Source of the DNA: Acutalibacteraceae bacterium
GTDB lineage: Bacteria; Bacillota; Clostridia; Oscillospirales; Acutalibacteraceae
NCBI GenBank assembly: GCA_045593385.1
Contig: JAZNWP010000048.1
Span: forward strand, 1 to 55,211
DNA length: 55,211 bases
Direction of reading: 5' to 3'
Each line of letters opens with the position of its first letter. The stretch's first letter is position 1. A program made the translations under genes and the position numbers. The notes under the pieces are model-generated. The model was not told where the DNA came from and searched no databases. It saw only the letters and a program-made list of their open reading frames with translations. Shown in pieces: positions 31,204 to 55,211 of the stretch.

Positions 31204-31236
31204 ACCTTCCTCCTATTTTTTACTTAAAATCATATT

Positions 31237-32082: not shown

Positions 32083-32169
32083 TTAATCACTCCTTCTATT
32101 TTAGTTAAAAATTTATAATTAACAAATTTTTCATTTTGTCCTGTTTTTTTGTAAATTTAAATAAAAAAT

Positions 32170-32406: not shown

Positions 32407-32441
32407 ACTAATTCACCTTTACTATATTTTCTCTCATTTAT

Positions 32442-32470
32442 ATTATACTTAATTTTTTAATAAAAATCAA
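32442..32470 (-). promoter_or_regulatory. sigma70-like promoter TTGATT-N17-TATAAT
   Basis: Reverse complement reads ttgatt tttattaaaaaattaag tataat upstream of gene 32170..32406. Confidence 0.4.
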
Positions 32471-32934: not shown

Positions 32935-32944
32935 ATTATTCTCC

Positions 32945-32996
32945 TATAAATAAAAATAAGGGGCCATATAGAAATATAAGTTTCTATATGGCCCTC
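32945..32996 (-). terminator. rho-independent terminator (minus strand)
   Basis: aggggccatatagaaa / tttctatatggccct 15-bp stem. On the minus strand it is followed by TTATTTTTATTT. Confidence 0.65.
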
Positions 32997-33156
32997 AATG
33001 TTATCCTACAAAGTAGGTATACGCCTTTTGGGCGTTTGTTTGTCTAATATTATAACTAAAAGAAGCACATCTTTCATAGCATTTCGCAAAACATAATGCT
33101 GCTTCAGACGGACTAGATAAATTTAAAAAATTTAAATAATTCATTGAACTACTATA

Positions 33157-33936
33157 TTTATATCCAAATACATTGAATTCTTTTTCAATAGTATTTTTAA
33201 GATATTCGCACTAATATTCTAAACTAGCCCCTGATAAAGTTCCATCAGTGTATGGTAAATACCACTAACAAATACCATAATATTGACCACTGTATAAATA
33301 TGGTTCTATATTTAAAGTCTAACCTCCAACTTCTGCCATAATATTACCCATAATTCCAGCGCATACATAGTCATTCCAACCTAACTCTTTCATATACAAC
33401 CAAATATATGATGCCACCGGATATTCAGATTTTCTTTTTTGCCACAATTCTTCCTCATAATCTATTTCTTCTATTTCAGTAGTAGTTTCGATTATAATTG
33501 GTGTAGTTGTTTCTTCTATAGTTGTTGAAATTTCATTAAAAGTAGTCTTAATTGTGGTTTCTATTTCAGTTGTGCTTTCAACTGTTCCACAGACTTCTTC
33601 CTCAATTGTAGTTTCTACAATTTCAGATGTTATTTCTTTAACAACATTTTCAATTATCTCACAAGATTCTTCTTCAATAATGCTTTCTGTTGGTTTGTAG
33701 GCTATATATTTAACCTCATAAAAAATTTCAGTAGATTCTTCTACCATTCCTTCAGTAGTAGTTTCTAATAATGGTATAACTTTTTTTACAACTTTTTTAG
33801 ATGGGATGTTAATTTCTAATATAGTTGAATTAATTGTTTTATCAGTTATGGCTGATATGTTTTTTATAGATAGAGTAAAAAATAAACTGATTGATAAAAT
33901 AAGTGCTATAATAGCAGTTAGAATATTTTTTTTCAT
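33157..33936 (-). CDS. secreted protein with signal peptide, Thr/Glu-rich linker and a phage-tail-lysozyme-like (peptidoglycan hydrolase) C-terminal domain, 259 aa, 3 in-frame TAG
   Basis: N-terminus MKKNILTAIIALILSISLFFTLSIKNISA is signal-peptide-like. Repetitive TTEIETTIKTT linker. C-terminus VCAGIMGNIMAEVGG resembles the AxGIxGNxxxESG motif of tail-lysozyme domains. Track ORF 33319.. extended through TAG to TAA 33157-33159. Confidence 0.4.
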
Positions 33937-33975
33937 AATTACCTCCTAATATTTCTATCAGGCCGTCAATTATAT

Positions 33976-35766
33976 TTAGAAATAGTATTTTTGTTCTCCA
34001 ATAATTTCATAATCCTCAATAATAATCTGAGGTTCTACAATACCATTCCACTCGTTTCGTCCGCATGTGCCGACGATATTAATGGTTATACAACCGAGTT
34101 CAGAGTAAAACTTTTCATACTCTTCTTGTGACGACTTGAATTTGATTAAACTCGTGCCATTTGGCAAGGTTATCTTCAAGGTAGGACTCTTGTCTTTTGA
34201 CATTAAAGTAACATTAGAACTAGTTAATTTAATATTTTCAATAGCAACAAGAGGTTCTTCTACCCCTTGGCCCCATAAAGATTTTAATTCAGCAATTTTA
34301 ATAATATCTTTTCCATTAAAGTCATTACCAGCATATATGAAATCAACCTTATAACATGGGGTAAAGTCAAAATCTGCCAAAGAATCGTTAGAGTAGTTTA
34401 TAAAGGTATCAATATTTAAATCTTTGATTCCAACACCAAGCGCGTTTGCATGCCCTTCCGCATACATAACTAAGCCGCTTTCTTTTAAAAACTCTCTCAA
34501 GTTGTCAAATTTAGATTTATCGTATCCTCTTCCTGAACCCTCCCAAGAAATGTCTTGTAAAACAAGCCTTTCTCCTTTTGTTCCTAAACATTCTATCTCT
34601 TGGATGGTTTTATTTAATAACAAAACCGGGCGTTGATATTGAGACATTAACTGATTTGCGATTAAACCAGTTAAGTTCTTATCAGTCGCAAAAGTATCTA
34701 ATTTAACAACTAAAATTTTATTCTCCAACAAATTTTGTTCTTCTATTGTGCGTTCAATTATTTCCAAGGCTGCGTCTCTTGCTTTTGTTTGCCTATTTTT
34801 TATGTTCATGCAATTACGACAAGCCTATTCTACTCTCGTCTCTTGCTGACCCTTACATCCTCGTTTAGTTGATGGGATTAGTTCATATCCCCGATAGTCA
34901 AGCATGGACTCGAATAGCATGACCTTTTCTTCTTGCGTTCCCATTCGAATCGTGGCATTTACATAGGGAGCAATATAAAAAGCTATTCCAAAAGGAGTGA
35001 TACCATTTTTTAATTGATATTCCTGTCTTTCGACCATTCCTCTGAAATACGGATTGCGGATACTTTTCAAACCTTTGTTTATTAAATGCTTTGTTTCATA
35101 GTCTCGCAAATCCATCATGTCGGCCACCATACCCAGTGCGACCAAATCTAAATATTGATCTGCATAATCAACATCCAAAAGAGTATCTATGTAAGAACAG
35201 AATTTATATACCATTCCTACACCAGAAAGTGATTTTGTTGGATAATCACACATTTGATTATTGATAACACAGGCATGTTCAGATTCTTTATCTGTTTCAT
35301 GGTGGTCTATTACTAACACATCTACTCCTCTTTCCGCAAGTTCTTTATGAACTTCATAATCATTTGAGCTTGAGTCGGGAGCAATTACTAGCTTAACATT
35401 GGTTGGAATGGTGTTAAGTAGTATTCCGTGTTCCTTCCCTGTATGGATACGATATAAAATGTTATTCTGCACAAAACCAGGGAAGAGACAATTTAAGTAG
35501 TTTATTAACGTTGCGGCAGATGTGTATCCATCGCAGTCGCTATCAATCTACACTAGAACTTTGTCGTTTTGTGAGATATGTTTGATAAGCATTTTTGCGC
35601 CCTTTTTAATATTTTTAATTAAAAGAGGATCTACAATATCCTTATTAGTTGTATTTAAATAGTGTTCTACATTTTCCGGGGCAATGCCTCGGTTGGCAAG
35701 CACCTGTTCGACCGCTGTCAACACTTTATTAGGCGGGAACTGTGGTGCAATAAGTTGATATTCCAT
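33976..35766 (-). CDS. recJ: DHH-family phosphoesterase, RecJ-like ssDNA exonuclease, 596 aa, 2 in-frame TAG; merges track ORFs 35548..35766, 34825..35472 and 33976..34809
   Basis: All three ORFs share one frame separated by TAG at 35548-50 and 34825-27. DHH motifs KVLV-TAG-IDSDCDGYTSAA and VLVIDHHETD. SD aaggagg before ATG 35766. Confidence 0.7.
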
Positions 35767-35819
35767 AAGAAATTCAACCTCCTTTCATGTAGATCACCAC
35801 CAACTTTATATTTGAAAAT

Positions 35820-36182
35820 TTATTCAATATATTTACTTCCTTTCGACCAATCAGGATGCCAATATCGAATATTATTTGGATAATAAGTTGCATAAGTTTG
35901 AGGACGAATTATATTATTATAAACTTCTAAGGTAATTCTAGTATCTACTATAGAAAAATCTGCTCTGTGACCTCTACTACAATCACCAGCTCTTCTAACT
36001 TTCCAAGAATCTATTATACCATCATCATTTTCGAAAAGTGCATTAGAACCATCCCTGCAGATTCTAACGTTCTAAGCTTCAATACCTTTCTTTTGATATT
36101 CCTAAACTATCTATTCAAAAAACTTATTTCCGTCTTCAATTTTTTCAGTCCAAATTATATATCTTCTATACCTTTTTTTCAT
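35820..36182 (-). CDS. hypothetical protein, 120 aa, 3 in-frame TAG
   Basis: Not in the track. ATG 36182 overlaps the primase TGA (ATGA). Frame is open through 3 TAG to TAA 35820-35822. Confidence 0.4.
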
Positions 36183-37279
36183 AAAATTATCCTTTCTTTA
36201 AATAATTGCAAAAATTTTTCTGGACCTTCATCAATTGGACTTGATTTATATCCAGTTATCATATTCTTATCAAAAATAAAAGAAATAGTTGCTGAATTTT
36301 TATATTTATTTCTTAATTTAATAAGATTCGTTTTTAATCTTTTAAACTCTTCATCACCAATTGCTTCAAACTGTCTATCAAACGCAATTACAATTTCTTC
36401 TACGCCTAAATCCAAAAGCATTTGTATTTGATACGCTGATATACTAAAACCGCAACAAGCAACTGAAATATCGTTATCCAAGCCAAAATATGATTTATAT
36501 AATAAAGTTGATTTTTCTGATTCAAAAACAATAACTTTTTTCATAATTTTAATATTATCTTTACTAAAATTAAGATTATATAAATTCATACCAAGAGGAT
36601 GATTATATAGTTCTTTATTAATTTTTAAAGGTCTATATTTACCAAAAAGCTTTCCCTCTTCTTCACACATTGTGCGGCCGCGCAGTCCTACGAACCTACC
36701 AGTCGAGTCAAAATGCGGAATTGTAATTTGGTCTCCTCCTGGATAAAACCCGATTCGTGCCTGATTCATCGCCTCTTGTGAAATTCCTTCATCTAACCAA
36801 GGTCTTATTTTTACACCATAGTTAAATCTATTTAAAATTTCATCATCATATTCTTTCAATATAATATTGCTTTCTTTTAAGGTAATTTCTTGAATTCTTT
36901 CATAATTAGTGAGATATTTCCAATCTTCCAGTTTCTCATCTGGATTTTCTGCGTATTCACCAGATAATCCGAACCGCTGAGCAACCCAGCGCACGGCATC
37001 ATTTAAATCGAATTCTTTTCCCCATTGAATCTTTGCTACTTTAATAACCAACTGAAATGGATCAAAATATTCATCGCAACCAGTGAAGCATTTAAACAGT
37101 CCTGTATTTTCATAATAATATAATTTCTTACTTCCTTCTCCTGGAGGATTGTGGCAGATAGTCGCGGAGATAAGCCCAAATGCTGCCGCATTGGGCTCAC
37201 CACCAAATTCATATAATAAATCAAAAATATTTTCAGTTGTCAAAGATTCTCTAATTTTTAATTTATCAAATGTTATCAT
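36179..37279 (-). CDS. dnaG: DnaG-type DNA primase (zinc-binding plus TOPRIM), 366 aa, no TAG
   Basis: CHC2 zinc finger CHNPPGEGSKKLYYYENTGLFKCFTGC. TOPRIM VIVFESEKS / DxD region. Confidence 0.8.
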   Translation of the reverse strand: MITFDKLKIRESLTTENIFDLLYEFGGEPNAAAFGLISATICHNPPGEGSKKLYYYENTGLFKCFTGCDEYFDPFQLVIKVAKIQWGKEFDLNDAVRWVAQRFGLSGEYAENPDEKLEDWKYLTNYERIQEITLKESNIILKEYDDEILNRFNYGVKIRPWLDEGISQEAMNQARIGFYPGGDQITIPHFDSTGRFVGLRGRTMCEEEGKLFGKYRPLKINKELYNHPLGMNLYNLNFSKDNIKIMKKVIVFESEKSTLLYKSYFGLDNDISVACCGFSISAYQIQMLLDLGVEEIVIAFDRQFEAIGDEEFKRLKTNLIKLRNKYKNSATISFIFDKNMITGYKSSPIDEGPEKFLQLFKERIIL

Positions 37280-37283
37280 TACA

Positions 37284-37520
37284 TTATAGACCTACTATTA
37301 CTTTAGTACAATATCCTTTTAAACCAAGAAATTGATTTACATAATCACACAATGCTTGTTGTGGATTTTTTCCTTTATTTTGATTAACAATTAAATCTGC
37401 TAAAGTTTGAGTCATTTTATACTCAAACAATCCGCTATGAAATTCAGGTGGTTCAACAACAGATTCTTTATTACTACCATAATCTCTTACCTTGTTCTTT
37501 TTTTCATACATTTTAGTCAT
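37284..37520 (-). CDS. small hypothetical protein, about 78 aa
   Basis: Track ORF 37284..37652 overlaps the helicase 3' end. Internal ATG 37520 with SD aaggag is the likelier start. Confidence 0.3.
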   Translation of the reverse strand: MTKMYEKKNKVRDYGSNKESVVEPPEFHSGLFEYKMTQTLADLIVNQNKGKNPQQALCDYVNQFLGLKGYCTKVIVGL

Positions 37521-37596
37521 ATTATTTATCTCCTTCTTATCTACAATTCCAAAATCGGAATCGTGTAATAAATTTAACTTACTTCTAAGCCCTCGC

Positions 37597-39144
37597 TCAA
37601 TCTTCACATTCGAAGGCTGATTCTTCGTCAATTCTAATTCTAACATCATCAATACTTACCATTTCATAATCATATGTCGTGCAGAACATCGGTTGAATTC
37701 TACAACAACCTAAATCTGCTTTACACCATAAGATTACTCCTTTATACCGTCCTCGTCTATTTTTATAAATAGACATTTTAATTGTTGGTCTTTCAAAAAT
37801 ATTAGACGATAATATATTTTCAAGAGCTACTAAGTCATCGTCTTTTACCGAGAGTAAAATCGCCCCATAGTCTATTTTATCGGCAATCGCCTTCGCACCA
37901 CGAAGAAGATTTTGATCAGGAACATCTGCATCTACATATGAGCCATTCAACTGCGTTGCTGACATAATAAATACTCCGTGTTGATTACATATGTCTTTTA
38001 ATCGAGTAGATAACATAAACAAGATATTATCTTCTCTTAATTTAATACCTCCAGAACGACGAGTAATTTCTTCAAGAATCTTCAAGCTTGTATGTATATA
38101 GTCATGAAAAACATACTTTACATCATGTTCTCGAATATTTTTCTTTATCTTATCTTCAACATCTTTTAATGAAAAGTCTGGTAATTCTTCAACATAGATT
38201 GGACTATCTTTTAATAAATTAGCCGCATAAATAACTCTTTCTTCTTCATCACCCTCGTATGAACCATTCAGAATCTTTTCTTCATTAACATTTGATAAAA
38301 ATGCTAACATCATAGTTTGAATTTCTTCAAGTTCCTGTTCTGTTGTAATAAATAAAACAGGCTCTGCGGCGCCACTTCCAATCCAACCAAAAGTATCATC
38401 ATATAGTTTATTACAACCAATATAACAGCAGTCGGCAATCATCGAGCGCGTCTTTCCGATACCAGTTGCGGCTGAGCGCAAATAAAACTTTTTTAATCTT
38501 GCTCCACGAGTTACTGTATTAATAAGCGGTCCGTATAAAGGAACTCCAACTTCTGGATGATCTTTAAATTTTTGAATTAAATCAAGAATTCCTTCTCCAG
38601 CTTGTTGAGCCTCACTAAATGTATCATCAACATATTGAAGTCTAATATTTTCGATTTTTGAATCTACCTTATCAGCAATGTCTTCCAAAGTTGAGTTATC
38701 TAATTGCTCTTCTTGATATTGTTTTTTCTTTGTGTCTAATATATTATCAACATCATAAATGTCTGATATATCAATTCCGCAATTATCATATGCTCTTAAT
38801 AAAGAAAATTTCTTTAATCTACCATAATAATAATCAAAAGCAGAACTAACACAGCTATCAGACACTTTCATTAGCCACTCTTCGCCTTTTCCTTCTTTAT
38901 AAATAGCTTCACTTTTAGGCTTTGTTGATAAGAAGTCTGAAATACTCTCTAAAGTAATTTTCTTTGCTCCTAATTCATATATTTTATAAATTGCTCCAAA
39001 AACTGTTTTATGAAACATATCTGGAAAATCTTCATCAACAATACTATATTTATCAGTAAAATCCAGAAGTTGGGGAGTATTATATACACATCCAATTACC
39101 TGCATAATACTTGTGGTATCTACATATTTAGATGCCATCCGCAT
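37597..39144 (-). CDS. dnaB: DnaB-family replicative DNA helicase, 515 aa, no TAG
   Basis: Walker A SAATGIGKT. DnaB N-terminal domain. RecA-like core with H3/H4 motifs. Confidence 0.85.
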   Translation of the reverse strand: MRMASKYVDTTSIMQVIGCVYNTPQLLDFTDKYSIVDEDFPDMFHKTVFGAIYKIYELGAKKITLESISDFLSTKPKSEAIYKEGKGEEWLMKVSDSCVSSAFDYYYGRLKKFSLLRAYDNCGIDISDIYDVDNILDTKKKQYQEEQLDNSTLEDIADKVDSKIENIRLQYVDDTFSEAQQAGEGILDLIQKFKDHPEVGVPLYGPLINTVTRGARLKKFYLRSAATGIGKTRSMIADCCYIGCNKLYDDTFGWIGSGAAEPVLFITTEQELEEIQTMMLAFLSNVNEEKILNGSYEGDEEERVIYAANLLKDSPIYVEELPDFSLKDVEDKIKKNIREHDVKYVFHDYIHTSLKILEEITRRSGGIKLREDNILFMLSTRLKDICNQHGVFIMSATQLNGSYVDADVPDQNLLRGAKAIADKIDYGAILLSVKDDDLVALENILSSNIFERPTIKMSIYKNRRGRYKGVILWCKADLGCCRIQPMFCTTYDYEMVSIDDVRIRIDEESAFECED

Positions 39145-39151
39145 TTACCTC

Positions 39152-39808
39152 CTAATCTTCATCTAGAAATGTAAATAATTCACGCTTTTTTACTTTTCTC
39201 TGCGGACGAGGAATTGAAATTTCTATTACTTTTGGTACATATAAATTAACTTCAATATCTTTATTCTTTTGTTGATTTAACCATAAATTATAGAAATAAT
39301 TATAAGCATCTTTATATACATAAGGTATAATTCCAATACCACCATTTGCTTTTTCTTTATCTCCATTTTTTATTTCATAAAAATAATATAATGCTTTTCT
39401 CATACCAGAATATGTAAAGTTATATTCTTCAACATATTTTTTAATTTGAGATTTCACTCTTGGTTCTATATAAGAAATTGAAAATAATTTTTTAATATAA
39501 TCTTCCAATTCTTCCTTATCAGTTTTTTCCCTATGCTCTTCAATTTCTTGACATTTTTTATGAGCATATTTGCCATTTGAAATCATTACACAATCTTCAT
39601 CTTTTTTATTTAATGGAGATTTACAATAAGCGCAAACCACATTGTCAGATGGATCAATAATTTCTTTTTTTACATAGTTTGGATCTTTTTCAGCCTCTCG
39701 CAACATACATGCAGCGTGCGCATATCGTCTCGCACTAACAAGCGCATATTCTTCCTTATCTCTATCAAATTTTATTTTACAATAAGGACATATTACAAAA
39801 TGACTCAA
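39152..39808 (-). CDS. zinc-finger protein (two CxxC...HxxC modules), 218 aa, replication-associated, unknown function
   Basis: CPYCKIKF...YAHAAC and CAYCKSP...YAHKKC. Lies in the primase/helicase operon. Confidence 0.45.
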   Translation of the reverse strand: MSHFVICPYCKIKFDRDKEEYALVSARRYAHAACMLREAEKDPNYVKKEIIDPSDNVVCAYCKSPLNKKDEDCVMISNGKYAHKKCQEIEEHREKTDKEELEDYIKKLFSISYIEPRVKSQIKKYVEEYNFTYSGMRKALYYFYEIKNGDKEKANGGIGIIPYVYKDAYNYFYNLWLNQQKNKDIEVNLYVPKVIEISIPRPQRKVKKRELFTFLDED

Positions 39809-39845
39809 TTCAAATCCACCTCTTTATTTTTTAATTTACATATAT

Positions 39846-39874
39846 ATTATACCAAAAAATAATAAAAAAATCAA
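39846..39874 (-). promoter_or_regulatory. promoter TTGATT-N17-TGGTATAAT (extended -10); copy 1 of a conserved ~45-bp element
   Basis: Reverse complement reads ttgatt tttttattattttttgg tataat. Shares the block atatatattataccaaaa..aaaaaaatcaagt with 42257-42305 and 54686-54724. Confidence 0.5.
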
Positions 39875-39905
39875 GTCAGAGCTTTATTTACTCCGACTTG
39901 ATAAA
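39871..39905 (-). terminator. terminator hairpin whose T-tract overlaps the -35 of the promoter at 39846-39874
   Basis: Minus-strand caagtcggag-taaataaag-ctctgacttg followed by atttttttatt. Confidence 0.4.
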
Positions 39906-39920
39906 GTTTTACATTAAATC

Positions 39921-40880
39921 CTACTTAATATCACTTATAATTAAATAAATAAACTCTGCTTGTTCAGGAGTGGTATCACTAACTTTTTTACCCTTTCCAA
40001 GATATTTCTCAACAATAGAGGTAATCTTAGGAGCGTTAGTAGTTCCACTACTCATTAGCTGACCAACTAAATCTTGAAATTCAGCCATAAGCATATCATA
40101 ATCATAAGTTGTTTCAGTAGGAGCTACAATTCTTTCAGTAGTTACAAACATATTATCAGTTTCAGCAGCTTCCTTGTCAATTGCTTCATTAATAGCATTT
40201 TCAAGATTTTTATAGCTCATAGTAATTTCATTAGGAATATACTTAAAGCGGCAACCGCATTCAACAACGCCAGAAGGATCTCTCAAAGTAAGAACAGACA
40301 TTTCATTTGCATTTTTCTGATGGGTATAACCATAAATATCTGCCATACCTGCAATAACAGTCTTCGTTGAATTGCTAAGACTTGGACGGATTTTTGTTGT
40401 CTTCGTTCCATCTGGATTATCAATCTGTTCAAGTTTATCATGTCCGATAAAGAATACAGCGTATCCTAATTGAGTTAGTCCACGGAAAATTTCATTGAAT
40501 TCATCTTTAAATTTAGTCCAACCTTTTCCATATCCCATATCGCCAAGGTCTTCAATACCATTTTGATTACAAATATATTTTTTACATCTATCTGCAGCAA
40601 TATCAATAGTATCTACTATGACTGCGCTAAAAGTGCTTTGAACTTCTGGCTTTTTAAGTTCTCTATAAACTTGTTTCATTTCTGCCCATGAGGTAATGTC
40701 TTGCGCCATTACCCCAGGGAGAGCATGATATCCAGGTTCAAAAGCAAGAAGAAGAGATTTTCCCATCTATGTTGCGAGAGTTGTTTTACCAGTTTTAGGT
40801 GCTCCATAGATATATGTAATATATCCGCTTAAATCACGAGATACTTTATGAGGCTGTATATTTAATAAATTAATAGCCAT
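39921..40880 (-). CDS. phage AAA_24/Sak4-like RecA-fold ATPase, 319 aa, 1 in-frame TAG
   Basis: Track ORF 39921..40766 extended upstream through TAG 40767-69 to ATG 40880 (SD aggagg). Walker A GAPKTGKTTLAT. Walker B VIVDTID. Confidence 0.5.
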
Positions 40881-40905
40881 TTTGATTTCCTCCTCTTGCG
40901 TTTAA

Positions 40906-41850
40906 TTAGAAATTAAATTCGCCTTGAGCTGTTGTAATTGTAGAAGAACCTGCTCCGCTAGCCTTAGATGCTTTATATTCATCTTGACGCTTTTTCATAG
41001 CAGCAAGGTCTACTTCTCTCTTCTGAATTGCTTCATTTAATTCAACAGCAGTAATAGAACTTTCATCATCCCAAAGATAAGGTTCTTTTGCAGCACCAGT
41101 AATTACGAAATCTTTGCGAGTACTCTTAATTTCACGAACTTCATCTTCTCCGAAAGCAGATTCAGTAGTTATAGTTCTAGTAACTACTTCGGATACCTGA
41201 CGACCCCAAACACAAGTGAAAACTGGTTCTTTTTGAGAAGCTCCAAGACCTTCAAAATAATCCATTGCATGAGGATTTGTAGCACTGAATTCTACAGGAA
41301 GAAGATCTTTACGGAAATTGAAAATTGCTCCTTTTACAATTACCTTTTCAGGAATCTTCTTTTCTTCATCAGCTTCTGTACGAGTTACACTATTGATAAG
41401 CATATCTGTCTTAAAGGTATTACGAACTTTTTCATCAGCATCAATTGCATCTACTTTATGAACAAATCCGCCTTCGTTTCTCTTAGCACTTACCAATTCT
41501 TCCTTACCATTTCTATCGGTATAAAATTCGTTAAGACCAATTGCTGAATCTACACGAAGCTTTACAGCTTTGTCAGCACCATCTTTCATATAAGTGCCAA
41601 ATGTTCCATTTATAATATTATTAAGAGTTGTATATGTGTCATTAGGTTTACCAGAACCAAAAGTGGCAGTTACATATGTGAAATGAACTGTGATAATATT
41701 TGTCATAGCATCATCAGTTGCAATGCCAATTGTTCCAGAAATAAACGGAGTACCAGGATTCTTTGAAGTTTCACCACTTACTTTTGATTCAAGAGCGTGT
41801 TCATAAAGTACTCCTTCGATGTGAGTTTGATTAATCATTGTTTTCTTCAT
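40906..41850 (-). CDS. hypothetical protein, 314 aa (possibly ssDNA-binding or recombination-associated)
   Basis: Intact ORF between the ATPase and regulator genes. C-terminal flexible Ser/Gly tail ending GEFNF. No confident family match. Confidence 0.3.
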   Translation of the reverse strand: MKKTMINQTHIEGVLYEHALESKVSGETSKNPGTPFISGTIGIATDDAMTNIITVHFTYVTATFGSGKPNDTYTTLNNIINGTFGTYMKDGADKAVKLRVDSAIGLNEFYTDRNGKEELVSAKRNEGGFVHKVDAIDADEKVRNTFKTDMLINSVTRTEADEEKKIPEKVIVKGAIFNFRKDLLPVEFSATNPHAMDYFEGLGASQKEPVFTCVWGRQVSEVVTRTITTESAFGEDEVREIKSTRKDFVITGAAKEPYLWDDESSITAVELNEAIQKREVDLAAMKKRQDEYKASKASGAGSSTITTAQGEFNF

Positions 41851-41873
41851 TTTTAATTTTCTCCTATTCTACT

Positions 41874-42236
41874 TTAATTTTCTTCAATATTAATATTTTT
41901 ACCTTTTTCTGTGATTGAATAAATTACTGGATCTTTGCTAACTTTTTCAACAAAACCATCTGATACAAGTTTTCTAATTGCGCCAGAGACAGTTCTTGAA
42001 CTAACAAATAAACCTTCTGCAATATCCTTTGCTTTCCACATTGGAGTTTCTGCATTTTCTTGTAAAAATTTCAGAATAAGTTTACCATTGTCAGTAAACA
42101 TCGGCTTTTCTGGTTCATCTTTGCCGCAAAATACTTCCCAATAAAGTCTTACATCTTCTGGCATATTATGAACTTGAACATCAGCTGCATCCATAATTTC
42201 TTCTACAAACTTAATAAATTCTTGTTTCTTACTCAT
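41874..42236 (-). CDS. winged-helix DNA-binding protein, 120 aa
   Basis: ETPMWKAKDIAEGLFVSSRTVSGAIRKLVSDGFVEK is an HTH plus wing. Confidence 0.5.
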   Translation of the reverse strand: MSKKQEFIKFVEEIMDAADVQVHNMPEDVRLYWEVFCGKDEPEKPMFTDNGKLILKFLQENAETPMWKAKDIAEGLFVSSRTVSGAIRKLVSDGFVEKVSKDPVIYSITEKGKNINIEEN

Positions 42237-42275
42237 TTTAAATTACTCACTTTCTTTTTTTTACCTTGTATATAT

Positions 42276-42304
42276 ATTATACCAAAATTAATTAAAAAAA
42301 TCAA
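42276..42304 (-). promoter_or_regulatory. promoter TTGATT-N17-TGGTATAAT; copy 2 of the conserved element
   Basis: Reverse complement reads ttgatt tttttaattaattttgg tataat. The -35 overlaps the folA stop codon. Confidence 0.5.
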
Positions 42305-42795
42305 GTTATTCTGTCATATTGCCAGAATTGAAACGAAAAATCTTTATAGTTTTCCAACTCTCCAAGAGCCATTGATTTCCATTGAGGATCTTTATCCAGG
42401 TTTGGAAAATATGTATCAACATTTTCATGTTTTTTATAAATTTTTGTTATATAAACTCGATTACAATAAGGAAGAAGTTCTTTGTAAATAATACCTCCAC
42501 CTATAATAAAAATTTCTTTTTTAGAAGTTTCTAACCAAGGAAGTAATTCTTCTAATGTCATATAAATAACTTGACTCGTTCCAGAAGGGGGATATTCTTT
42601 CCGTGTAATAATTACATTATTCCTATTTGAGAGAGGTTTTTTTGGTAAAGAATCCCAAGTTTTACTTCCCATTATTACTACATTATTAGTAGTGAGTTTT
42701 TTAAAATTTTTTAAGTCTGCGGGGATTGATTCTAACAAATTTCCATTGTATCCTATTCCCCAGTCTTCATTTACTGCTACTATTGCATTAATCAT
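42301..42795 (-). CDS. folA: dihydrofolate reductase, 164 aa, no TAG
   Basis: MINAIVAVNEDWGIGYNGNLLESIPADLKNFKKLT...VIMGSKTW is the canonical DHFR N-terminus. Ends TGA. Confidence 0.8.
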   Translation of the reverse strand: MINAIVAVNEDWGIGYNGNLLESIPADLKNFKKLTTNNVVIMGSKTWDSLPKKPLSNRNNVIITRKEYPPSGTSQVIYMTLEELLPWLETSKKEIFIIGGGIIYKELLPYCNRVYITKIYKKHENVDTYFPNLDKDPQWKSMALGELENYKDFSFQFWQYDRIT

Positions 42796-43022
42796 ATAAA
42801 TTTTCCCTCATTCCAATTTTTGGCTGCTTTAATTTTAGCATCAAAAAGAGAAATCTCTTGAGCAAACCAGAATCCTCCAGTATTCATAGTTTTCTTATGA
42901 CAATTTGGACATTCAAGCCATAAATGAGTATAATAGGGATTTGGTCTAATAAATTCTGGATAAAATCCACAATCACAGGCCTAAATACTTACTACTTCAT
43001 TTGAAATAATATAATCTTTCAT
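42792..43022 (-). CDS. small Cys-rich (Zn-binding) protein, 76 aa, 1 in-frame TAG
   Basis: ATG 43022 overlaps the thyA TGA. CDCG...CPNCH. TGA 42792-94 overlaps the folA ATG. Confidence 0.35.
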
Positions 43023-43888
43023 ATTCCTAACTCCAATTTTAATTGAGGTTTAATAGGATTATAATTTACCATAGAAAAATCATCAATAGTAAAATCATAA
43101 AAATTATTTTTATCTTCATTAAGAACTAGCATACTTTCTGGATACACTCCATTATAATAATCTTTTGCGTCAAGTTCTTTAAATCTTTTTAGCATTTCAT
43201 TTGCTTGTTCTATATGACGATCATAAATTTGTTCATTGGCAACAAAATGCGAAAATACTCCAGGCAAATAATTTGTATGACGAGCAATCATCATTAATAA
43301 AGCAGCATACTATGCTTCATTAATGCCGCCTGGACCAGAAGCAGTTAGCATATCACCACTGCGCTGAACAAGAACCATATCAAGATATTCTTTTCCGTTT
43401 TCATTGCGGACGTTCCATATTGTGAGGAATGCGCAAGGGGCTAATCCGGCCGTTTCAGCAAGGTCCGTTTCTTGCCAAAGGGATACTATTTTACGACGAC
43501 CATATGGATCAGTTTCAATATCTTTAATAAGTTTGTTAATTAAATCATAGCGACTAACCGTTGCCCCATATCTTTGTCCAATTGTGCCGTCTCCAATATC
43601 CCAATCGCCCCACCAATTAACTCCCATTTCTTCCATTTTAGTTATTTCATTGGTTGGCTTTTGATAAATGGTAAAGATTTCTTTTATTCCAGTTTTCCAA
43701 GCAATTGGACGATATTGACAAATTGGAAATTCTCCACGAGATAAGTCATAAGTTCTAAAAGTATGATTTATTGATTTAGTATGTGCGGGAGTGCCATCCG
43801 CATATTTTGGACGGGGATTCCGGTCCCAATAGCCATCCGCAAGTATTCTATCAATAATTTCTTTCATATAAATATCTGCTTTATTCAT
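43019..43888 (-). CDS. thyA: thymidylate synthase (B. subtilis ThyA-type), 289 aa, 1 in-frame TAG; merges track ORFs 43310..43888 and 43019..43294
   Basis: DGTPAHT, IAWKTGIKEIFTIYQ, DGTIGQRYG, catalytic LAPCAF, QRSGDM, C-terminal FYDFTIDDFSMVNY. TAG 43310-12 aligns with Gln of FNVFQYN in B. subtilis ThyA. Confidence 0.8.
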
Positions 43889-44177
43889 ATTTTATTTTAT
43901 CCTCCAATGATAAGGTATATCCTTTTAAATGTCCAAATAAAAAACTATTTACAAAAACTTCTAATTCATCAATGTAGATTTCTACATCTGGACTTTTGTG
44001 CCTATAATCAAATACGTCTTTATAACTTATAAATTCAATATTTGTAATTCCATAAGAATACGCTTTCTGTTTCATCGCAAATGGATTAATACAAGCAATA
44101 ACCGCACCAGTCTATTCAGCTAATTCCATTAATTTTCCAGTTTTCCCAGTTCCTTTATCATCAATTATTCTATGCAT
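43881..44177 (-). CDS. hypothetical protein, 98 aa, 1 in-frame TAG (P-loop-like GTGKTGK)
   Basis: Track ORF 43881..44075 extended upstream through TAG to ATG 44177. Confidence 0.35.
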
Positions 44178-44403
44178 TTTCACATTTCTCCTTGTATTCT
44201 TTTACGAATTGGGTTAAATTTTCTTGTAAAGATTTGCTAAAATCTTCAATATTATCCGCTTCAAAAATTCCATTTAATGAATATGAACCAACATAGTTAT
44301 TATAATTTTCACAAAATAATACTTGACTTATTTTTTGAATTTGGTCATTCGCTTCATTTTCATTTTTTGCTTCTTGAATTATTGCCGAAAAACTAAACAT
44401 CAT
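44161..44403 (-). CDS. hypothetical protein, 80 aa, 1 in-frame TAG near the C-terminus
   Basis: Track ORF ends at TAG 44170. True stop TGA 44161-63. Confidence 0.35.
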
Positions 44404-44414
44404 AATGGCTCTCC

Positions 44415-45425
44415 TTATTTTATACTATATCCAAATTCTTTTGCTTTAAAATAATCTTGCCAGTAATCTTCTCTTGAATCTAAAAGACTTCTATCGCATT
44501 CTTCAACAACTTCAAATGTAAAGTTTTCAGGTCCAATAGCAATCATAGCTGGATATAACTTATTTTTTGTTGGTTGTTCTGCACCAACTCCACGCTTAAT
44601 ATGTTGTTTCCAACGATCTGCAATATTTGCGGCTTGACCAACATAGCATTTTCCAGAAGAGATTTCAGTTATTTTATATATTCCGGTGTGAGTGCCGGAA
44701 CCGACCACTCGACCAATCATATCAGTAGTAGGTTTTTCATAATAACATTTCCAAATGATTTTATTAAGAGGTTCTTTGTTTCTTAATAGATGTTCTATTG
44801 AGCGCAAAGCCTCGATTTCATTAATATCAACTTCGTTTAAACAAATCCGATAAAAATCTTGTTGAGTGCGCAGTTCTTCCGCCCTTTTGGCGGCTTCAAC
44901 CGCAGCTGCATGAATATTTCTCATTTCTGAAATATCAGTCTATAATTTTTGGAATTCTTTTAAATTATCCTATACTATTTCATCGTATTCAATCTAAAAC
45001 TATTCAATATTTTCATCTTTCGCAGCCATTGCTTTAATAATCTCTTCATTTAATTTACTCTATGCGATTTCTAATTGAAGATTATAATAAGAATCTGCGG
45101 CGGTTTTAGACTATTCTTCAAGCATTCTCATATTATCGTTTAAAATGTTAATATTAGATAAAATAGTATTTTTTTCAGCAGTTAATTCTCTTGTTTCATT
45201 TTCTATTATTTCTTTTTGATCTAATAAAATTAATTTATCATGAATTAACTATTGGTTATCTTTTTCTAATTGCTGATACTCTCTTTTGGCTTTCTAATTT
45301 TCTTCTTTTATCCATTCATCCTATTGCTCAGCCGCAACTAACCGAGGTTTTAGAATAAAAAATATAGATAAGCCAGTTATTACTGCTGTAATAACAATTG
45401 CTATTATTAATACAACAAATTGCAT
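44415..45425 (-). CDS. membrane-anchored coiled-coil protein with C-terminal GIY-YIG nuclease domain, 336 aa, 9 in-frame TAG in the coiled-coil half
   Basis: ATG 45425. N-terminal TM FVVLIIAIVITAVITGLSIFFIL. Coiled coil reads smoothly with Gln at the TAGs (EQQDEWIKEENQKAKREYQQLEKDNQQL...). C-terminus GIYKITEISSGKCYVGQAANIADRWKQHIK...EDYWQDYFKAKEFGYSIK matches the I-TevI-like GIY-YIG domain. The track shows only the C-terminal 169 aa. Confidence 0.6.
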
Positions 45426-45479
45426 AGTAAAAAAAATAAGGGGTAAGAATTATTTTCTTACCCCTTTGATAAAATCAAA

Positions 45480-45755
45480 TTAGTCAGCAGCTTCTTCAGT
45501 TGCGTCTGGATCGAAGCTCATACCTGCAGGAGTGAGGCTCAAAAATTTAACCTGCTTATGTGTTCCATCTTCAAGTTCGATTTCAGCAAGAGTACGAACG
45601 CCAAGACCCTTTCTTTGAATAGCAGAAGTGAAAATACCATCAACAGACTTCTTTTCAAGACCGAGAGCAGCAGCAACATCAGCAGCAGTTACATTTTCAC
45701 CATTGATTTCCTTCAAATAATTTAAAACCTTTTTAGAATTTTCTTTCATAGCCAT
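45480..45755 (-). CDS. winged-helix DNA-binding protein, 91 aa
   Basis: VTAADVAAALGLEKKSVDGIFTSAIQRKGLGVRTLAE is an HTH plus wing. Driven by a consensus promoter. Confidence 0.45.
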   Translation of the reverse strand: MAMKENSKKVLNYLKEINGENVTAADVAAALGLEKKSVDGIFTSAIQRKGLGVRTLAEIELEDGTHKQVKFLSLTPAGMSFDPDATEEAAD

Positions 45756-51262: not shown

Positions 51263-51656
51263 TAAGACTAAACTACCTTTCTGTTTTATTTAAATAAGTG
51301 TCTTTTTCTAAAAAAGGTGCTTCTTCTTTTGGTTTAAAAATAGTTATATTTTTAACAACATTACTATTAACTAATAAAATATCATTATTTGGAAAAACTT
51401 TTTTTAATTCTTGATATAAAATTTTATATTCACCCATATCTATATCATCAGAAATTTGACACATAATAACATCATTGGGGTTTGTTTTAACAATCTAAAC
51501 AGGAATTCCATCTGACCAAACATCAACAGTCCCGTTTAGAGAAGAATCTGGATATATCGGTGAAGACGAATATTTGCTAAAATCAATTCCATCAAGCGTT
51601 GAAGATAAATATTTACTAAAATCAATTCCATCAATTGAATTATTTATATTACACAT
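51246..51656 (-). CDS. hypothetical protein, 136 aa, with a 13-aa tandem repeat (IDGIDFSKYLSS x2) and 2 in-frame TAG
   Basis: ATG 51656 lies 2 nt after the gyrB stop. Track ORF 51273..51464 is its C-terminal part. Reads through TAG 51273-75 to TGA 51246-48. Confidence 0.35.
51562..51639. repeat. 39-bp tandem direct repeat x2 (in-frame, coding)
   Basis: gaagacgaatatttgctaaaatcaattccatcaagcgtt / gaagataaatatttactaaaatcaattccatcaattgaa. Confidence 0.6.
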
Positions 51657-53586
51657 CTACATTTGCCCTCCAAGCATTATTTTCAATGAACTTTTTTCTT
51701 GGGTCAACACTTTCACCCATAAGACTCATAAATGTTTTTGCTACTTCGGTAGCATCTTCCATTGTAATTTGTTTTAAAGTTCTTGTTTCTTTTGACATAA
51801 CAGTTTCTGCCATTTCTTCAGGATCCATTTCACCAAGACCCTTCATTCGACCAAGCTCAAAATTCTTTGAAGTAGACTTTCTAAATGCTTCAAGTGCGGC
51901 ATCATCTTTTAAATATTGAATCTTAGTTCCCATAGTAGCTTTATAAAGAGGAGGCACTGCCGCATATACATAACCCTTTTCCAGTAATTCCGGACAGAAC
52001 TTCCAGATAAATGTGAGGAAGAGGACGCGTATGTGGCTGCCATCAACGTCAGCGTCTGCGGTGATAATAAACTTACCATAACGAAGTTTTGTTTCATCAA
52101 CGATAATTTTATTGTCTTTCACTTCTAAGCCAAAAGCATCAACCATACCACTTATTTCTTTATTTTGAAGAGCTTTATGTAAATCACATTTCAAAACATT
52201 AAGTGGCTTACCACGAAGCTGAAACACTGCTTGTGTTAATCTGTCTCTCGCTTCTTTTGTTGATCCAGCAGCAGATTTACCCTCTACAATAAATACTTCA
52301 CAGTTATATCTATCTTTCGAGCTAGCATCTGCAAGAACATCTGGCATAATTACTCTGCGCTTAGCATCGGCTTTGCGCACAGTTTCCTTAGCCTTTTTTG
52401 CCTTTTCCCTTGCCGCTCGAGCCAAAAGTGCTTTATCTACAATAGCCTTAGCATCTTTTGGATTTGCGTCAAGCCAAACTTTTATTTCCTTAGATACTAA
52501 TCTTTGGACTGCCGTTCTTGCTTCGCTACTGGAAAGAACATCTTTTGTCTGACCAGAGAAAACTGGGTCTGGCATAATAAATGAAAGAACAAGAACAAGT
52601 CCTTCTTTTAATTCTTCGCCAGTGATATTAGCATCTTTTTCTTTTAATAATTTATTATCTCTTGCGTAATCGTTAATTGTGCTTGTAAGCGCAGTTCTGA
52701 AACCGGTTAAGTGAGTTCCCGCGCTATTTGGAATTGAATTGGTATATAATTTATAAGTATCAGTATAATTATCATTATACTGCATAGCAAGTTTTACTCC
52801 AATTCTATCTTCCATATTTTCAGTATAAAATACTGATGTTAATTTTGTTTTGTCTTTATTTAAATCATTAATATAATCTTTAATACCATTTTGAGAAGTA
52901 ATTATTTCTTTTGATTTATCTTCAAATTGAAGTGAAAAAATCAATCCTGGAGACAAATAAGCTAATTCTTGAATTTGCTTTTTTAAAGCATTATAATCAA
53001 GAGAGATACCTTCTTTAAAAATCGATATATCTGGCTTAAAAGATATACAAGTCCCAGAAACTGTTTTATCAATTACACCATTTAAGCCTAAAAGCGGTTC
53101 TTCTTTGTAGCTAATTAATTCACCTTTTTTAAATTCGGCAGTTGCTTTTTTGCCATTTCGAGCAGAAACAACTTTAAATATTTCTGATAAAGCATTAGTC
53201 GCTTTTGCACCTACACCATTCATACCACCAGACGTATTATATCCTGCTTTTCCATCACTATCGAATTTAGCACCGGTATGTAATTTGGTATAAACATTAA
53301 CCAAAGTTTCACTTCCATCTTCAGCTTTGCCGAAAGGAACGCCACGGCCATTATCTCTAATAGTTATAATATCATCTTTAACATAAATTTCGCACTCTGT
53401 GCAATGTCCATTCAGATATTCATCAACAGCATTTGATATAATTTCGAGGGTGATGTGCCTTACACCTTCTGGTCCAGTTGAACCGATATACATACCCGCA
53501 CGAAGTCTAATTGCTTCAATACCCTCTAAGGTCTTAATTTGATTTACGCCATACTCAGCATTATTTACGTTGTTTGGTATTTCCAT
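51649..53586 (-). CDS. gyrB: type IIA topoisomerase subunit B (GyrB/ParE/T4 gp39+60-like), 645 aa, no TAG
   Basis: GHKL ATPase (EIISNAVDE, GRGVPFG). TOPRIM EVFIVEGKSAAGS. PLxGK. C-terminal tail. Confidence 0.85.
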   Translation of the reverse strand: MEIPNNVNNAEYGVNQIKTLEGIEAIRLRAGMYIGSTGPEGVRHITLEIISNAVDEYLNGHCTECEIYVKDDIITIRDNGRGVPFGKAEDGSETLVNVYTKLHTGAKFDSDGKAGYNTSGGMNGVGAKATNALSEIFKVVSARNGKKATAEFKKGELISYKEEPLLGLNGVIDKTVSGTCISFKPDISIFKEGISLDYNALKKQIQELAYLSPGLIFSLQFEDKSKEIITSQNGIKDYINDLNKDKTKLTSVFYTENMEDRIGVKLAMQYNDNYTDTYKLYTNSIPNSAGTHLTGFRTALTSTINDYARDNKLLKEKDANITGEELKEGLVLVLSFIMPDPVFSGQTKDVLSSSEARTAVQRLVSKEIKVWLDANPKDAKAIVDKALLARAAREKAKKAKETVRKADAKRRVIMPDVLADASSKDRYNCEVFIVEGKSAAGSTKEARDRLTQAVFQLRGKPLNVLKCDLHKALQNKEISGMVDAFGLEVKDNKIIVDETKLRYGKFIITADADVDGSHIRVLFLTFIWKFCPELLEKGYVYAAVPPLYKATMGTKIQYLKDDAALEAFRKSTSKNFELGRMKGLGEMDPEEMAETVMSKETRTLKQITMEDATEVAKTFMSLMGESVDPRKKFIENNAWRANVDV

Positions 53587-54317
53587 TTAAAACCTCCACA
53601 TTTATTTCTTTTTCCATTACAAACTTTTGAAATGCCACTGGCATCGCAATCATTATCTGCGGCAGCTAATGCTACACTACCATAAATCTGTAATTCTTCA
53701 TTATTATCATTCATTTTTATTACTTGTTTACTTGATTTTGTAATTCTATTATTTTGAACTTGATTAACTTTTATTTCTGGAATAATAATTTCATTTTCTT
53801 CATCTAAAAATCTAAAAATACGATTGCCAGTTGTCAATCTTGTTCCATTACAAACATTACTGATTTTAAATCTATCTAATCCAGTTGCTTCACCTGCTTC
53901 TGCGAGAGAGTTCCAAATAACAAGAATGTTATTGGCAGAGTCAATTTCACAAACTCGTTTACCGTATTTTTCTCTTTTGGTATCACTCATTTTCTTTGCT
54001 ATTACAGGATCAAACATAGGACTATCAGTTTTATCAGTTTGATTATATCCATTTGGCTTAACACAATCTTCTTTAATAATCCAATTGTGCTCTGCTTCAA
54101 TCATTGCTTTCCAAGTTGGTAAAGTATCAACTATTTCAAAAGTGAAGTTAGCAATACCAAACTCTCTGAAAGCGACCATTAAAGGATAATTATAATGATG
54201 GTCTTTTTCGTTGATGGAAGCTTCTTTATGCTACCTCCATCTGCGTTCAGTTTCAATTGATGAACCAATATAAACCATTCCATTTTTTTGATTAGTTATT
54301 TTATAAATTTGATACAT
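53565..54317 (-). CDS. free-standing GIY-YIG homing endonuclease (Seg/I-TevI-like with NUMOD-like linker), 250 aa, 1 in-frame TAG
   Basis: ATG 54317 with SD aaggtaaggtg. YQIYKITNQKNGMVYIGSSIETERRWR-TAG-HKEA (GIY...YIG...R..H). EHNWIIKEDCVKPNGYN. Repeated ISNVCNGTRLTTGNRIFRF / ISKVCNGKRNKCGGFKWKY modules. The 3' end overlaps the gyrB start by 22 nt. Confidence 0.7.
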
Positions 54318-54413
54318 AGAATTCACCTTACCTTTCTATTATATCATAAAAATTGATAAAAATTAATTTTCCATTCTGGGCCAATGCCAGGACAGAGTTG
54401 ATGAAATTAACCT

Positions 54414-54656
54414 TTATTCTGTCAATAGATGTGCGGCAGCAGGCAATTCTGTTACAATATGCTCTAATTCTCCATTAAATTCATATTCTTTTTTACATTT
54501 TTTACATAACCAATGACTTAAAGTGAGATATCCATCAATTAAATTCATTGATTGCTTACAATATGGACATTTTAAAGGAGTAATACCGGGTCTTAACCGA
54601 ATTGCTTCAATGCCTTCGAGTGTTTTTATATCTTTAACACCATAATCTATTGACAT
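54414..54656 (-). CDS. 80-aa ORF whose first ~24 aa duplicate the GyrB N-terminus (IKTLEGIEAIRLRPG), then a Zn-ribbon (CPYC...CKKC)
   Basis: The shared 15-aa core (IKTLEGIEAIRLR) is identical to GyrB 51649..53586 at protein level; differs at synonymous sites (att/ata, aag/aaa, tta/ctc, aga/cgg ...). Own promoter upstream. Confidence 0.5.
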   Translation of the reverse strand: MSIDYGVKDIKTLEGIEAIRLRPGITPLKCPYCKQSMNLIDGYLTLSHWLCKKCKKEYEFNGELEHIVTELPAAAHLLTE

Positions 54657-54693
54657 AGCTTAAAATCCTTTCTATTTTTTATTTTACAAATAT

Positions 54694-54722
54694 ATTATAC
54701 CATATTTTTTTTAAAAAATCAA
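54694..54722 (-). promoter_or_regulatory. promoter TTGATT-N17-TGGTATAAT; copy 3 of the conserved element
   Basis: Reverse complement reads ttgatt ttttaaaaaaaatatgg tataat, upstream of ORF 54414..54656. Confidence 0.5.
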
Positions 54723-54731
54723 TTAAGAAAA

Positions 54732-55211
54732 TCAGAATAATCCCTCAATTTGATTTTTATCATTAACAAAAATAAAGTTTGCGGCAGGAACTTTCGGCAA
54801 ACCAGGCATTGTCATAATTTTTCCACAAATAATTACTATAAATCCAGCACCTGCAGACAATCTTACTTCATTAACTTTAATGGAGAAATCTTCGGGTGCT
54901 CCTAATAAAGTTGCGTCATCACTAAAGCTATATTGTGTTTTTGCTATGCAAATTGGTAATTTATCATAACCAAGAGAAGTGATTTTTTCTATCATACGTT
55001 CAGCTTCTTCTGAATAAATTACATCATTAGCCCCATAAATATTATGCGTAAGATTATAAATTTTTTGCTTTATATCTTGATTGATGTCATATGGATGAGT
55101 TAAAACGCCAGTATCTTGTTGAATTGCGTCAAGCACTTCCCAAGCCAGGGCTTCCGCACCTTTCCCGCCTCGCGCAAAAGAATCACATACAACGCAAGGA
55201 ACTTTTATATC
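54732..55211 (-). CDS. fhs: formate--tetrahydrofolate ligase, 3' portion (gene continues beyond the window end)
   Basis: ...ARGGKGAEALAWEVLDAIQQDTGVLTHPYD...LPICIAKTQYSFSDD...EVRLSAGAGFIV...TMPGLPKVPAA...IEGLF is the characteristic FTHFS C-terminus. Frame is open to base 55211. Slightly higher GC than the phage average. Confidence 0.65.
   Translation of the reverse strand, partial: DIKVPCVVCDSFARGGKGAEALAWEVLDAIQQDTGVLTHPYDINQDIKQKIYNLTHNIYGANDVIYSEEAERMIEKITSLGYDKLPICIAKTQYSFSDDATLLGAPEDFSIKVNEVRLSAGAGFIVIICGKIMTMPGLPKVPAANFIFVNDKNQIEGLF

Follow-up and report, generated by a model that had tools for sequence, protein, structure and literature searches.

A GIY-YIG endonuclease cassette that very probably carried its own replacement gyrB start into a homing site of an uncultivated phage

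We analyzed the gyrB locus in a 55,211-nt stretch of DNA (the window) from the Acutalibacteraceae bacterium assembly GCA_045593385.1, contig JAZNWP010000048.1. All coordinates refer to this window, and the features of the locus lie on its minus strand. A complete gyrB gene (51649..53586) codes for a 645-aa protein with the Pfam domains HATPase_c, DNA_gyraseB, Toprim and GyrB_C and contains no in-frame TAG. It is preceded by a GIY-YIG homing endonuclease gene (53565..54317; 250 codons and a stop) with an in-frame TAG at codon 29. As a first-pass annotation of the same sequence had noted, the 3′-end of the endonuclease gene overlaps the gyrB start by 22 nt; the overlap is in a different frame, and both the gyrB ribosome-binding site, GGAGG (53597..53593), and the start codon lie inside the endonuclease gene. 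Further upstream is an open reading frame (ORF) of 80 aa (54414..54656). It had been described as separately promoted, and a promoter-like site (54722..54694; TTGATT-17-TATAAT with an upstream TG, TGnTATAAT) and a ribosome-binding site, AGAAAGGA, were indeed found in front of it.

The N-terminus of the 80-aa ORF, MSIDYGVKDIKTLEGIEAIRLRPG, duplicates that of the GyrB of the window, which begins MEIPNNVNNAEYGVNQIKTLEGIEAIRLRAG. The identical contiguous core is 13 aa, IKTLEGIEAIRLR, and not 15 aa as first reported. We designate the upstream fragment F, the complete downstream gene G′ and its 5′-end G′5′. Comparison of F with G′5′ over the 20 codons YGV..G revealed 6 identical codons, 11 synonymous differences and 3 non-synonymous ones, so that the same residue is encoded in 17 of 20 codons, in agreement with the synonymous divergence reported earlier. 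The two share 42/62 nucleotides, with no identical run longer than 12 nt. In an all-versus-all comparison of the ORFs of the window, the GyrB N-terminus was the only short peptide duplication (E 3e-7); the remaining three matches were longer similarities between separate ORFs.

The interrupted region can be divided into segments. F (54583..54656) consists of 24 codons and the AT of codon 25. It is fused in frame to the 3′ part of a small zinc-ribbon gene with the motif CPYC..CKKC (54442..54582), hereafter the cargo. The ORF ends within a conserved, frame-independent module of 124 nt (54318..54441), which is kept in 14 loci whatever the cargo and is followed by the endonuclease gene. G′5′ (53492..53586) comprises 31 codons and the AT of Met32. 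The whole inserted cassette (54582..53492) is 1,091 nt long and lies at about codon 25 of gyrB (..CCN GGN AT|G). The promoter-like site and ribosome-binding site upstream of F now serve only this stranded fragment and its fused cargo.

Searches of IMG/VR and metagenomes identified many contigs of 120-200 kb with gyrB genes 60-86% identical to that of the window. Among GenBank phages, no relative was found by nucleotide search (one 122-nt match), and the best match of a protein search had only 44% identity. The source is an uncultivated phage of approximately 120-200 kb that uses TAG as a sense codon, and its clade is known only from metagenomes. Relative loci and proteins compared with the window are referred to by L and P numbers, respectively. 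In most relatives gyrB is uninterrupted and starts M..YGVKDIKTLEGIEAIRLRPGMYIGS; a start of this type matches the N-terminus of the 80-aa ORF better than does the GyrB N-terminus of the window itself. The promoter region of F is also present in the relatives with an empty site, where it precedes an intact gyrB. At least 16 cassette loci have the layout of the window, behind different upstream genes (for example formate-tetrahydrofolate ligase, FTHFS, or lysozyme): a variable upstream gene, the gyrB promoter with F (about 24 codons), a variable segment, the module, a GIY-YIG gene (248-250 aa) and a complete gyrB.

The first-pass annotation had proposed a comparison with relatives lacking the endonuclease, and this shows the origin of the two copies directly. 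The cassette-free allele of L048 reads ..ATTCGCCTTAGACCAGGTATGTATATTGGTTCT.. at the site. In L095/L096, which are filled, 138 nt upstream and F are 100% identical to L048, up to ..CCAGGTATG (GGTATG), whereas the first 59 nt of L095 G′ compared are only 69% identical to it; an identity of about 99% is regained 15-40 nt past codon 25. The same pattern was observed for L099 versus L058 and for L039 versus L040. In all three comparisons the cassette is present or absent at one site in near-identical genomes and its flank is co-converted. Since F is identical to the empty allele and the start of G′ is foreign, F represents the resident gyrB start left in place; the identity pattern also places the crossover points close to the junction. 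G′5′ is 64-80% identical to the F that resides with it and accompanies the endonuclease across different gyrB lineages. The locus is thus very probably a filled homing site, in which a cassette was inserted into gyrB together with its own replacement 5′-end: the carried ribosome-binding site, start codon and 31 codons rebuild an intact gyrB downstream of the endonuclease. Of the three readings put forward in the first-pass annotation, this corresponds to gene conversion from a diverged donor, mediated by the homing endonuclease gene, with F as the resident sequence and the copy on gyrB as that of the donor.

The carried starts, together with the endonuclease C-termini, fall into three types, which reassort with classes of cargo. 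Type I, MEIPNNVNNAEYGVNQ..RLRAGMYIG, is found in the window, L009-13, L093-97, L105 and L106; type II, MGISVNNNADYGVKQ..RLRPGMYVG, in L001, L088, L091, L092 and L098-100; and type III, MSEEILLKKGKEDYGVKDIRTLEGIEAIRIRPGMFIG, with a TTG start, in L039/L101, L086 and L089. Each differs from the otherwise invariant RLRPGMYIG: Pro is replaced by Ala in type I, including the window, I by V in type II and Y by F in type III. L053 and L059 have a type III endonuclease C-terminus and the Y to F change, yet keep RLRPG. The amino-acid change of each carried copy is located no more than 3 codons from the junction, and the downstream gyrB copies group by cassette type and not by the gyrB lineage of the host. 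The junctions are spread over approximately 10 nt among loci (after CCN, GGN, AT, ATG or ATGTAT), and in L053 the junction is at codon 4. Such scatter fits several independent joins near one break. L053 and L059 were also considered as an ancestral, free-standing state that predates the duplication; this was rejected, as their cargo ORF begins with the resident gyrB ribosome-binding site and 4 codons.

The endonuclease matches Pfam GIY-YIG (PF01541) with an E value of 4.2e-11, and its residues 4-97 match the I-TevI catalytic domain (1MK0/1LN0; E 2.8e-9), and the alignment includes IY..YIG, RW.(Q/TAG)H and GYN; to bring the catalytic Glu (EAEHNW versus ERENFW) into register with that of I-TevI, a shift of one residue is needed. 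The conserved Tyr, Tyr, Arg, Glu and Asn of the family are all present in this N-terminal domain. Two stretches of the C-terminal part match an I-HmuI NUMOD-like DNA-binding module (PF22083; E 8e-9), the tail matches phrog_20162, and PHROG homing endonuclease families were matched. The ratio of non-synonymous to synonymous substitution rates (dN/dS) is 0.10-0.20 among relatives and 0.13-0.20 for the gene of the window against them. Judged by these values, the gene appears intact, under purifying selection and of the free-standing, I-TevI-like homing type. The initial description of a 250-aa Seg/I-TevI-like enzyme holds as far as the I-TevI-like GIY-YIG domain goes, but the gene is not open in the standard code. 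From the junction positions and the changes in the carried copies we infer that the enzyme specifically cleaves the endonuclease-free allele and that the allele bearing it is resistant.

The TAG at codon 29 (54233..54231) is replaced by CAA or CAG (Gln) in 14 homologues and by CAT (His) in L053, and is shared by L100. The L053 gene has three further in-frame stops, at codons 93, 144 and 188, all TAG, and all five in-frame stops found in these endonuclease genes (window, L100, L053) are therefore of one kind. With TAG read through, the window's ORFs of 100 aa or more add up to 20,295 aa, compared with 15,125 aa otherwise. Long TAG-rich ORFs occur across positions 1..45500, for example 1009..2583 (+), 22444..24672 (-) and 44415..45449 (-), and ORF 4070..9997 (+; 1,975 aa) has 19 in-frame TAG codons; gyrA, gyrB and a 1,307-aa ORF have none. 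The ORFs gained and the Gln positions occupied by TAG are those of a phage with TAG-to-Gln recoding (genetic code 15 type), and the pattern fits recoding limited to a subset of genes. Because the window is so extensively recoded, the endonuclease TAG is probably read as Gln; before TAG decoding sets in, it probably prevents production of the endonuclease. A tRNA scan of the 55-kb window found no tRNA and hence no suppressor tRNA(CUA) there.

ORF 44415..45449 (-) also contains a GIY-YIG domain. It has 344 codons from stop to stop with 9 in-frame TAG codons and over its residues 257-316 shares 38% identity with the endonuclease next to gyrB; several relatives have a counterpart approximately 6-8 kb downstream of gyrB.

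Some loci carry the zinc-ribbon ORF without an endonuclease: L106 (2812..3138), P0006, P0017, P0088 and L108. In the first four, the endonuclease is deleted between GCTGCCGCA-like repeats, which lie in the module and in the region of the endonuclease C-terminus. In L108 the zinc-ribbon ORF has a new N-terminus and two GGAGGTTTTAAATGG repeats at its flanks. All five are derived states produced by deletion, in which the endonuclease 3′-end, the cassette-type gyrB start or both remain. It had been argued beforehand that endonuclease-less genomes with the same ORF would dissociate it from homing; such genomes do exist, but as derived deletions they do not bear on the question. In L105 a remnant of the endonuclease 3′-end (about 4080..4130) lies ahead of gyrB, fused behind an RNase H gene.

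The module opens with TGCTGCCGCA.. and encodes the last codons of the 80-aa ORF, PAAAHLLTE, and its stop. It contains a hairpin (54390..54376), a TGnTATAAT -10 element (54346..54338) and the ribosome-binding site of the endonuclease. The hairpin, just upstream of the endonuclease promoter, is found at homologous positions in 13 loci, and one pair covaries (U-A, C-G, U-G): the stems are CUGG/CCAG in the window, CCGG/CCGG in most loci and CCUGG/CCAGG in L089, with U-G in L088 and L095. The predicted fold of the module was not significant against shuffled sequence (single-sequence z -1.3) and the alifold consensus was weak. With only one small covarying hairpin, we do not claim the module as a structured RNA element. 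A conserved peptide end of the tails, 'PAAARLLAE', was likewise discarded, as, relative to the tail ORF, the same DNA occurs in every one of the three frames. An exact-pattern search for the module in viral contigs returned the loci already known and one more.

The CPYC..CKKC tail had been called a zinc ribbon, and its match to phrog_5602 (E 2.8e-5) and the stand-alone relatives of 50-75 aa found with HMMER bear this out. A stand-alone gene, L109, is located among NAD-salvage genes on a 105-kb contig and shares ACTCCTTTAAAATGTCCnTATTGTAA with the tail, preceded by GGC ATA. The stand-alone member reads ..GGC ATA ACT CCT TTA AAA TGT CCC TAT TGT AA.. and the tail of the window starts ..GGT ATT ACT CCT TTA AAA TGT CCA TAT TGT AA.., which places the fusion point in a GGNAT microhomology with gyrB codons 24-25. 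The tail was captured from this family of stand-alone zinc-ribbon genes. Its dN/dS ranges over 0.05-0.75, staying below 1 in 10 out of 10 pairs, and the synonymous rate (dS) of the tail is below that of both the endonuclease and F. Between the stranded gyrB start and the endonuclease lies a slot in which, across loci, at least nine small ORFs unrelated to each other occur; they include zinc ribbons of two kinds and membrane peptides. Metagenomic short ORFs with a GyrB N-terminus have at least seven unrelated tails; other loci have an unfused small ORF in the same slot, preceded by a ribosome-binding site of its own. The other cargo tails had no Pfam match at family cut-offs. One possibility, which we put forward tentatively, is that the cassette acts as a gene-delivery platform: homing would spread hitch-hiking microprotein genes wired to a strong early promoter, and the TAG may time the nuclease separately from the co-transcribed gyrase.

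These data suggest how such a cassette might move. The endonuclease would cut cassette-free gyrB around codons 23-26. Repair would then copy the cassette from a filled allele, the left broken end pairing with F and the right one with the body of gyrB just past codon 25, and co-conversion tracts would be very short. In genomes whose upstream genes are unrelated, the initial joins would have been illegitimate and would have captured whatever lay upstream of the donor endonuclease; this would account for both the variable cargos and the scattered junctions. Once beside the cassette, F could serve as a portable left homology arm. The carried copy may escape cleavage through the changes in its RLRPGMYIG motif, and its low nucleotide identity to F may limit loss of the cassette by repeat recombination. 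In the window, the zinc-ribbon tail would be the 3′ part of a donor gene upstream of the endonuclease, joined to broken gyrB at the GGNAT microhomology and now translated from the orphaned gyrB start. gyrB itself would be translated independently from its own ribosome-binding site, and expression of the endonuclease would await TAG decoding.

Several observations weigh against this interpretation. For the window itself no near-isogenic partner with an empty site was found; among cassette-free alleles the closest has 82% identity. From sequence we infer where the enzyme cuts, that the carried copy is immune and that F acts as a homology arm. The supposed immunity changes could be ordinary polymorphism and not adaptation: cassette-free alleles with the type I-like Ala (RLRAG, GCG GGT) are found in L015-17, and cassette-free alleles with Val (GMYVG) in L007, L008 and L014. 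The endonuclease could be a recent nonsense pseudogene if its TAG is not decoded, the window being devoid of a suppressor tRNA. Finally, the diversity of cargos could stem from independent joins or from later swapping. As to the cassette-free alleles, L015-17 look like F x G′ recombinants, with a K-D-type 5′ half and the type I 3′ half AGA CTT CGC GCG GGT; they and the alleles of L007, L008 and L014 may be scars of cassette loss, possibly resistant to cleavage.

The conservation of the GyrB-like peptide had been attributed to selection, and it had been suggested that the 80-aa protein is a decoy. In the form that we considered, it would be a selected decoy or regulator whose GyrB N-terminal arm binds the ATPase domain of host or phage gyrase, the zinc ribbon adding a further function. 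The ORF does retain a strong promoter and a ribosome-binding site, the in-frame fusion occurs in at least six classes of cargo, none of the ten pairs has a tail dN/dS of 1 or more, and the 13-aa core is intact in 10 of 22 homologues with the zinc-ribbon tail (tail A). However, the core is substituted or deleted in 11 of the 22, seven of which (P0002, P0009, P0013-P0017) keep CxxC..CxxC, and P0018 has no core at all. The zinc-ribbon gene also stands alone as a family or has other N-termini, as in L108; L053 has a different cargo, of 70 aa, to which just 4 initial gyrB codons are fused; and some cargos are unfused, with a ribosome-binding site of their own. Moreover, gyrB alleles lacking the endonuclease differ synonymously from each other as much as F differs from G′5′. 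Both copies owe their conserved protein sequence to functional gyrB alleles between which synonymous divergence had already accumulated, and the fragment descends recently from a live gyrB. As F decays in relatives, selection on the peptide appears unnecessary for the pattern and, on this comparison, is contradicted; any selection acts on the cargo and not on the GyrB-like peptide. We consider a decoy improbable.

Another suggestion was that F is a split or alternative 5′ exon of gyrB. The insertion would then be a group I intron or some other spliced or bypassed element, and the 24 codons a first exon joined to ..MYIGS. The insertion boundaries are near-precise within coding sequence, the module upstream of the endonuclease is rich in GC and contains a covarying hairpin, and relatives have a genuine group I intron at gyrB codon ~589, with or without a GIY-YIG gene. 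Nevertheless, a search with group I intron models, which the first-pass annotation had recommended for the endonuclease region, gave no Intron_gpI (RF00028) match in 53300..54800 even at E<=10. The same scan was positive in L080, where gyrB contains an ORF-less intron of about 0.27-0.29 kb (~7715..8001; 23.4 bits, E 5.8e-4) at codon ~589, in the motif GRMKG|LGEMD; here the exon ends with U and the intron with G. At the 5′ cassette no placement of the junction gives both: the constant U at the end of the 5′ exon is absent and there is no terminal G before the 3′ junction. At the Rfam gathering threshold there was no match on the window or on four loci. Only about 93 nt are available 3′ of the endonuclease ORF, and these are constrained as coding sequence; the module folds no better than shuffled sequence, as given above, and the junctions vary by ~10 nt between cargo classes. 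The downstream gyrB, finally, has its own ribosome-binding site and start and is complete alone. An intron at this position is therefore highly improbable.

Gyrase genes of this clade are a hotspot for mobile insertions. L045, L047-L053, L055-L057 and L059 have insertions of ~1 kb at gyrB codon ~583-589 with a different GIY-YIG gene, 34-44% identical. Further insertions of ~1 kb were observed at gyrB codon ~515-528 in L071, L073 and L074, those of L073 and L074 containing a GIY-YIG gene, and at codon 77/78 of gyrA in L056.

The least probable alternative is that the gyrB 5′-end was duplicated in tandem in situ and the copies then diverged, with the endonuclease arriving later and without a causal role: two copies of 20 codons do lie in direct orientation 1.1 kb apart, but the upstream copy is identical to near-isogenic empty alleles against just 64-80% identity for the downstream copy, downstream copies group according to cassette type rather than host gyrB lineage, and the arrangement occurs only with the endonuclease or its 3′ remnant. 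A split intein or 'fractured gene' (PMC2677866) was also rejected, gyrB being complete and no intein motif following the fragment.

A filled homing site with a carried gyrB start most closely resembles certain mobile ORFs (mORFs) of fungal mitochondria, which carry the C-terminus of a foreign gene. These are known from atp6 of Allomyces macrogynus, atp6, atp9, cox2 and nad3 of Glomus, atp9 of Rhizopus and cox2 of Mortierella, and their native remnant is closer in nucleotides to relatives than is the inserted copy (PMC3630166). In both systems an endonuclease gene inserts into coding sequence together with a foreign gene end, the host gene remains whole and the native remnant lies adjacent. The remnant is 91-98% identical to relatives in mORFs and up to 100% in the gyrB cassette, and the carried copy is ~64-81% identical in nucleotides with the protein conserved; against the empty allele, F is 100% and G′5′ 69% identical, and 17 of 20 residues are the same in the two. 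Unlike mORFs, which provide a 3′-end in phase with the host gene, the ORF often being in phase as well, the gyrB cassette carries a 5′-end with a ribosome-binding site and start codon, and its endonuclease is upstream and out of frame. The remnant here keeps its promoter and is probably still translated, a variable cargo slot separates it from the endonuclease, and the cassette is found in a double-stranded DNA phage and not in an organelle.

The cassette shares with the Seg endonucleases of T-even phages and with I-TevI an I-TevI-like catalytic domain and a NUMOD-type tail, without an intron or intein. As in 'intronless homing' by Seg enzymes, presence is polymorphic between related phages and flanks are co-converted. 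I-TevI, however, is intron-borne, and seg genes lie between genes and cut a neighbouring gene, whereas the cassette is situated within coding sequence and brings a replacement start. Endonuclease genes that split phage genes include mobE in nrdA of Aeh1, mobA between genes 39 and 60 of T4 and a seg gene in gene 43 of phage 25 (PMC2988022). They too are free-standing and are located inside essential replication genes, in T4 that of a homologous type II topoisomerase subunit, but there two polypeptides must reassemble and no duplication is described (PMC2988022). Here gyrB has all its domains and a full N-terminus, and the remnant decays in relatives and is dispensable. The T4 39/60-mobA precedent cited in the first-pass annotation is a loose analogy, since the T4 gene is split and not duplicated. 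The group I intron loci of the same clade (L045, L047-L053, and L080 without an ORF) share with the cassette the gene, a related GIY-YIG enzyme and precise insertion at a conserved motif, but depend on RNA splicing, while the 5′ cassette has no ribozyme signature. A limited check of the literature found no phage endonuclease with a duplicated 5′ gene end, which does not prove novelty.

If interpreted correctly, the cassette adds a third means by which a free-standing homing endonuclease can reside inside an essential phage gene: it neither uses an intron or intein nor splits the gene, but carries a recoded start. This would connect phage biology with the carried-terminus mORFs of fungi and explain the puzzling short 'GyrB N-terminus' ORFs of metagenomes, of which there are at least 40 clusters. 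It also yields a search rule (a nuclease gene beside a short duplicated gene end with synonymous divergence) that could reveal elements and their targets in other phages. The cargo slot and the TAG-interrupted nuclease offer leads on the interplay of selfish elements, hitch-hiking genes and stop-codon recoding, and, with empty and filled alleles known precisely, the target site can be tested directly.

Other features of the surroundings were recorded. A single contig, IMGVR_UViG_3300032167_000002 (402,311 bp), contributes both L058, whose gyrB lacks the cassette, and L081, whose gyrB is filled and of L009 type; its length is about twice that usual for genomes of the clade, and two related phages have probably been joined in it, as a chimera or by concatenation. 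Both states also occur in IMG sample 3300024272, the source of cassette-free L004 and L018 and of filled L010. Directly upstream of the gyrB locus, the window (54732..55211, -), L086, L089 and L090 have the FTHFS gene, an auxiliary one-carbon metabolism gene in a phage, identified by a Pfam match in relatives (537-549 aa); other members of the clade have a lysozyme/peptidase gene in its place. Directly 3′ of gyrB, a short ORF (51495..51656, -) contains a direct repeat in which DGIDFSKY(L/S)SS is encoded twice; in L013, L030 and L053 the position just 3′ of gyrB is occupied by another GIY-YIG gene.

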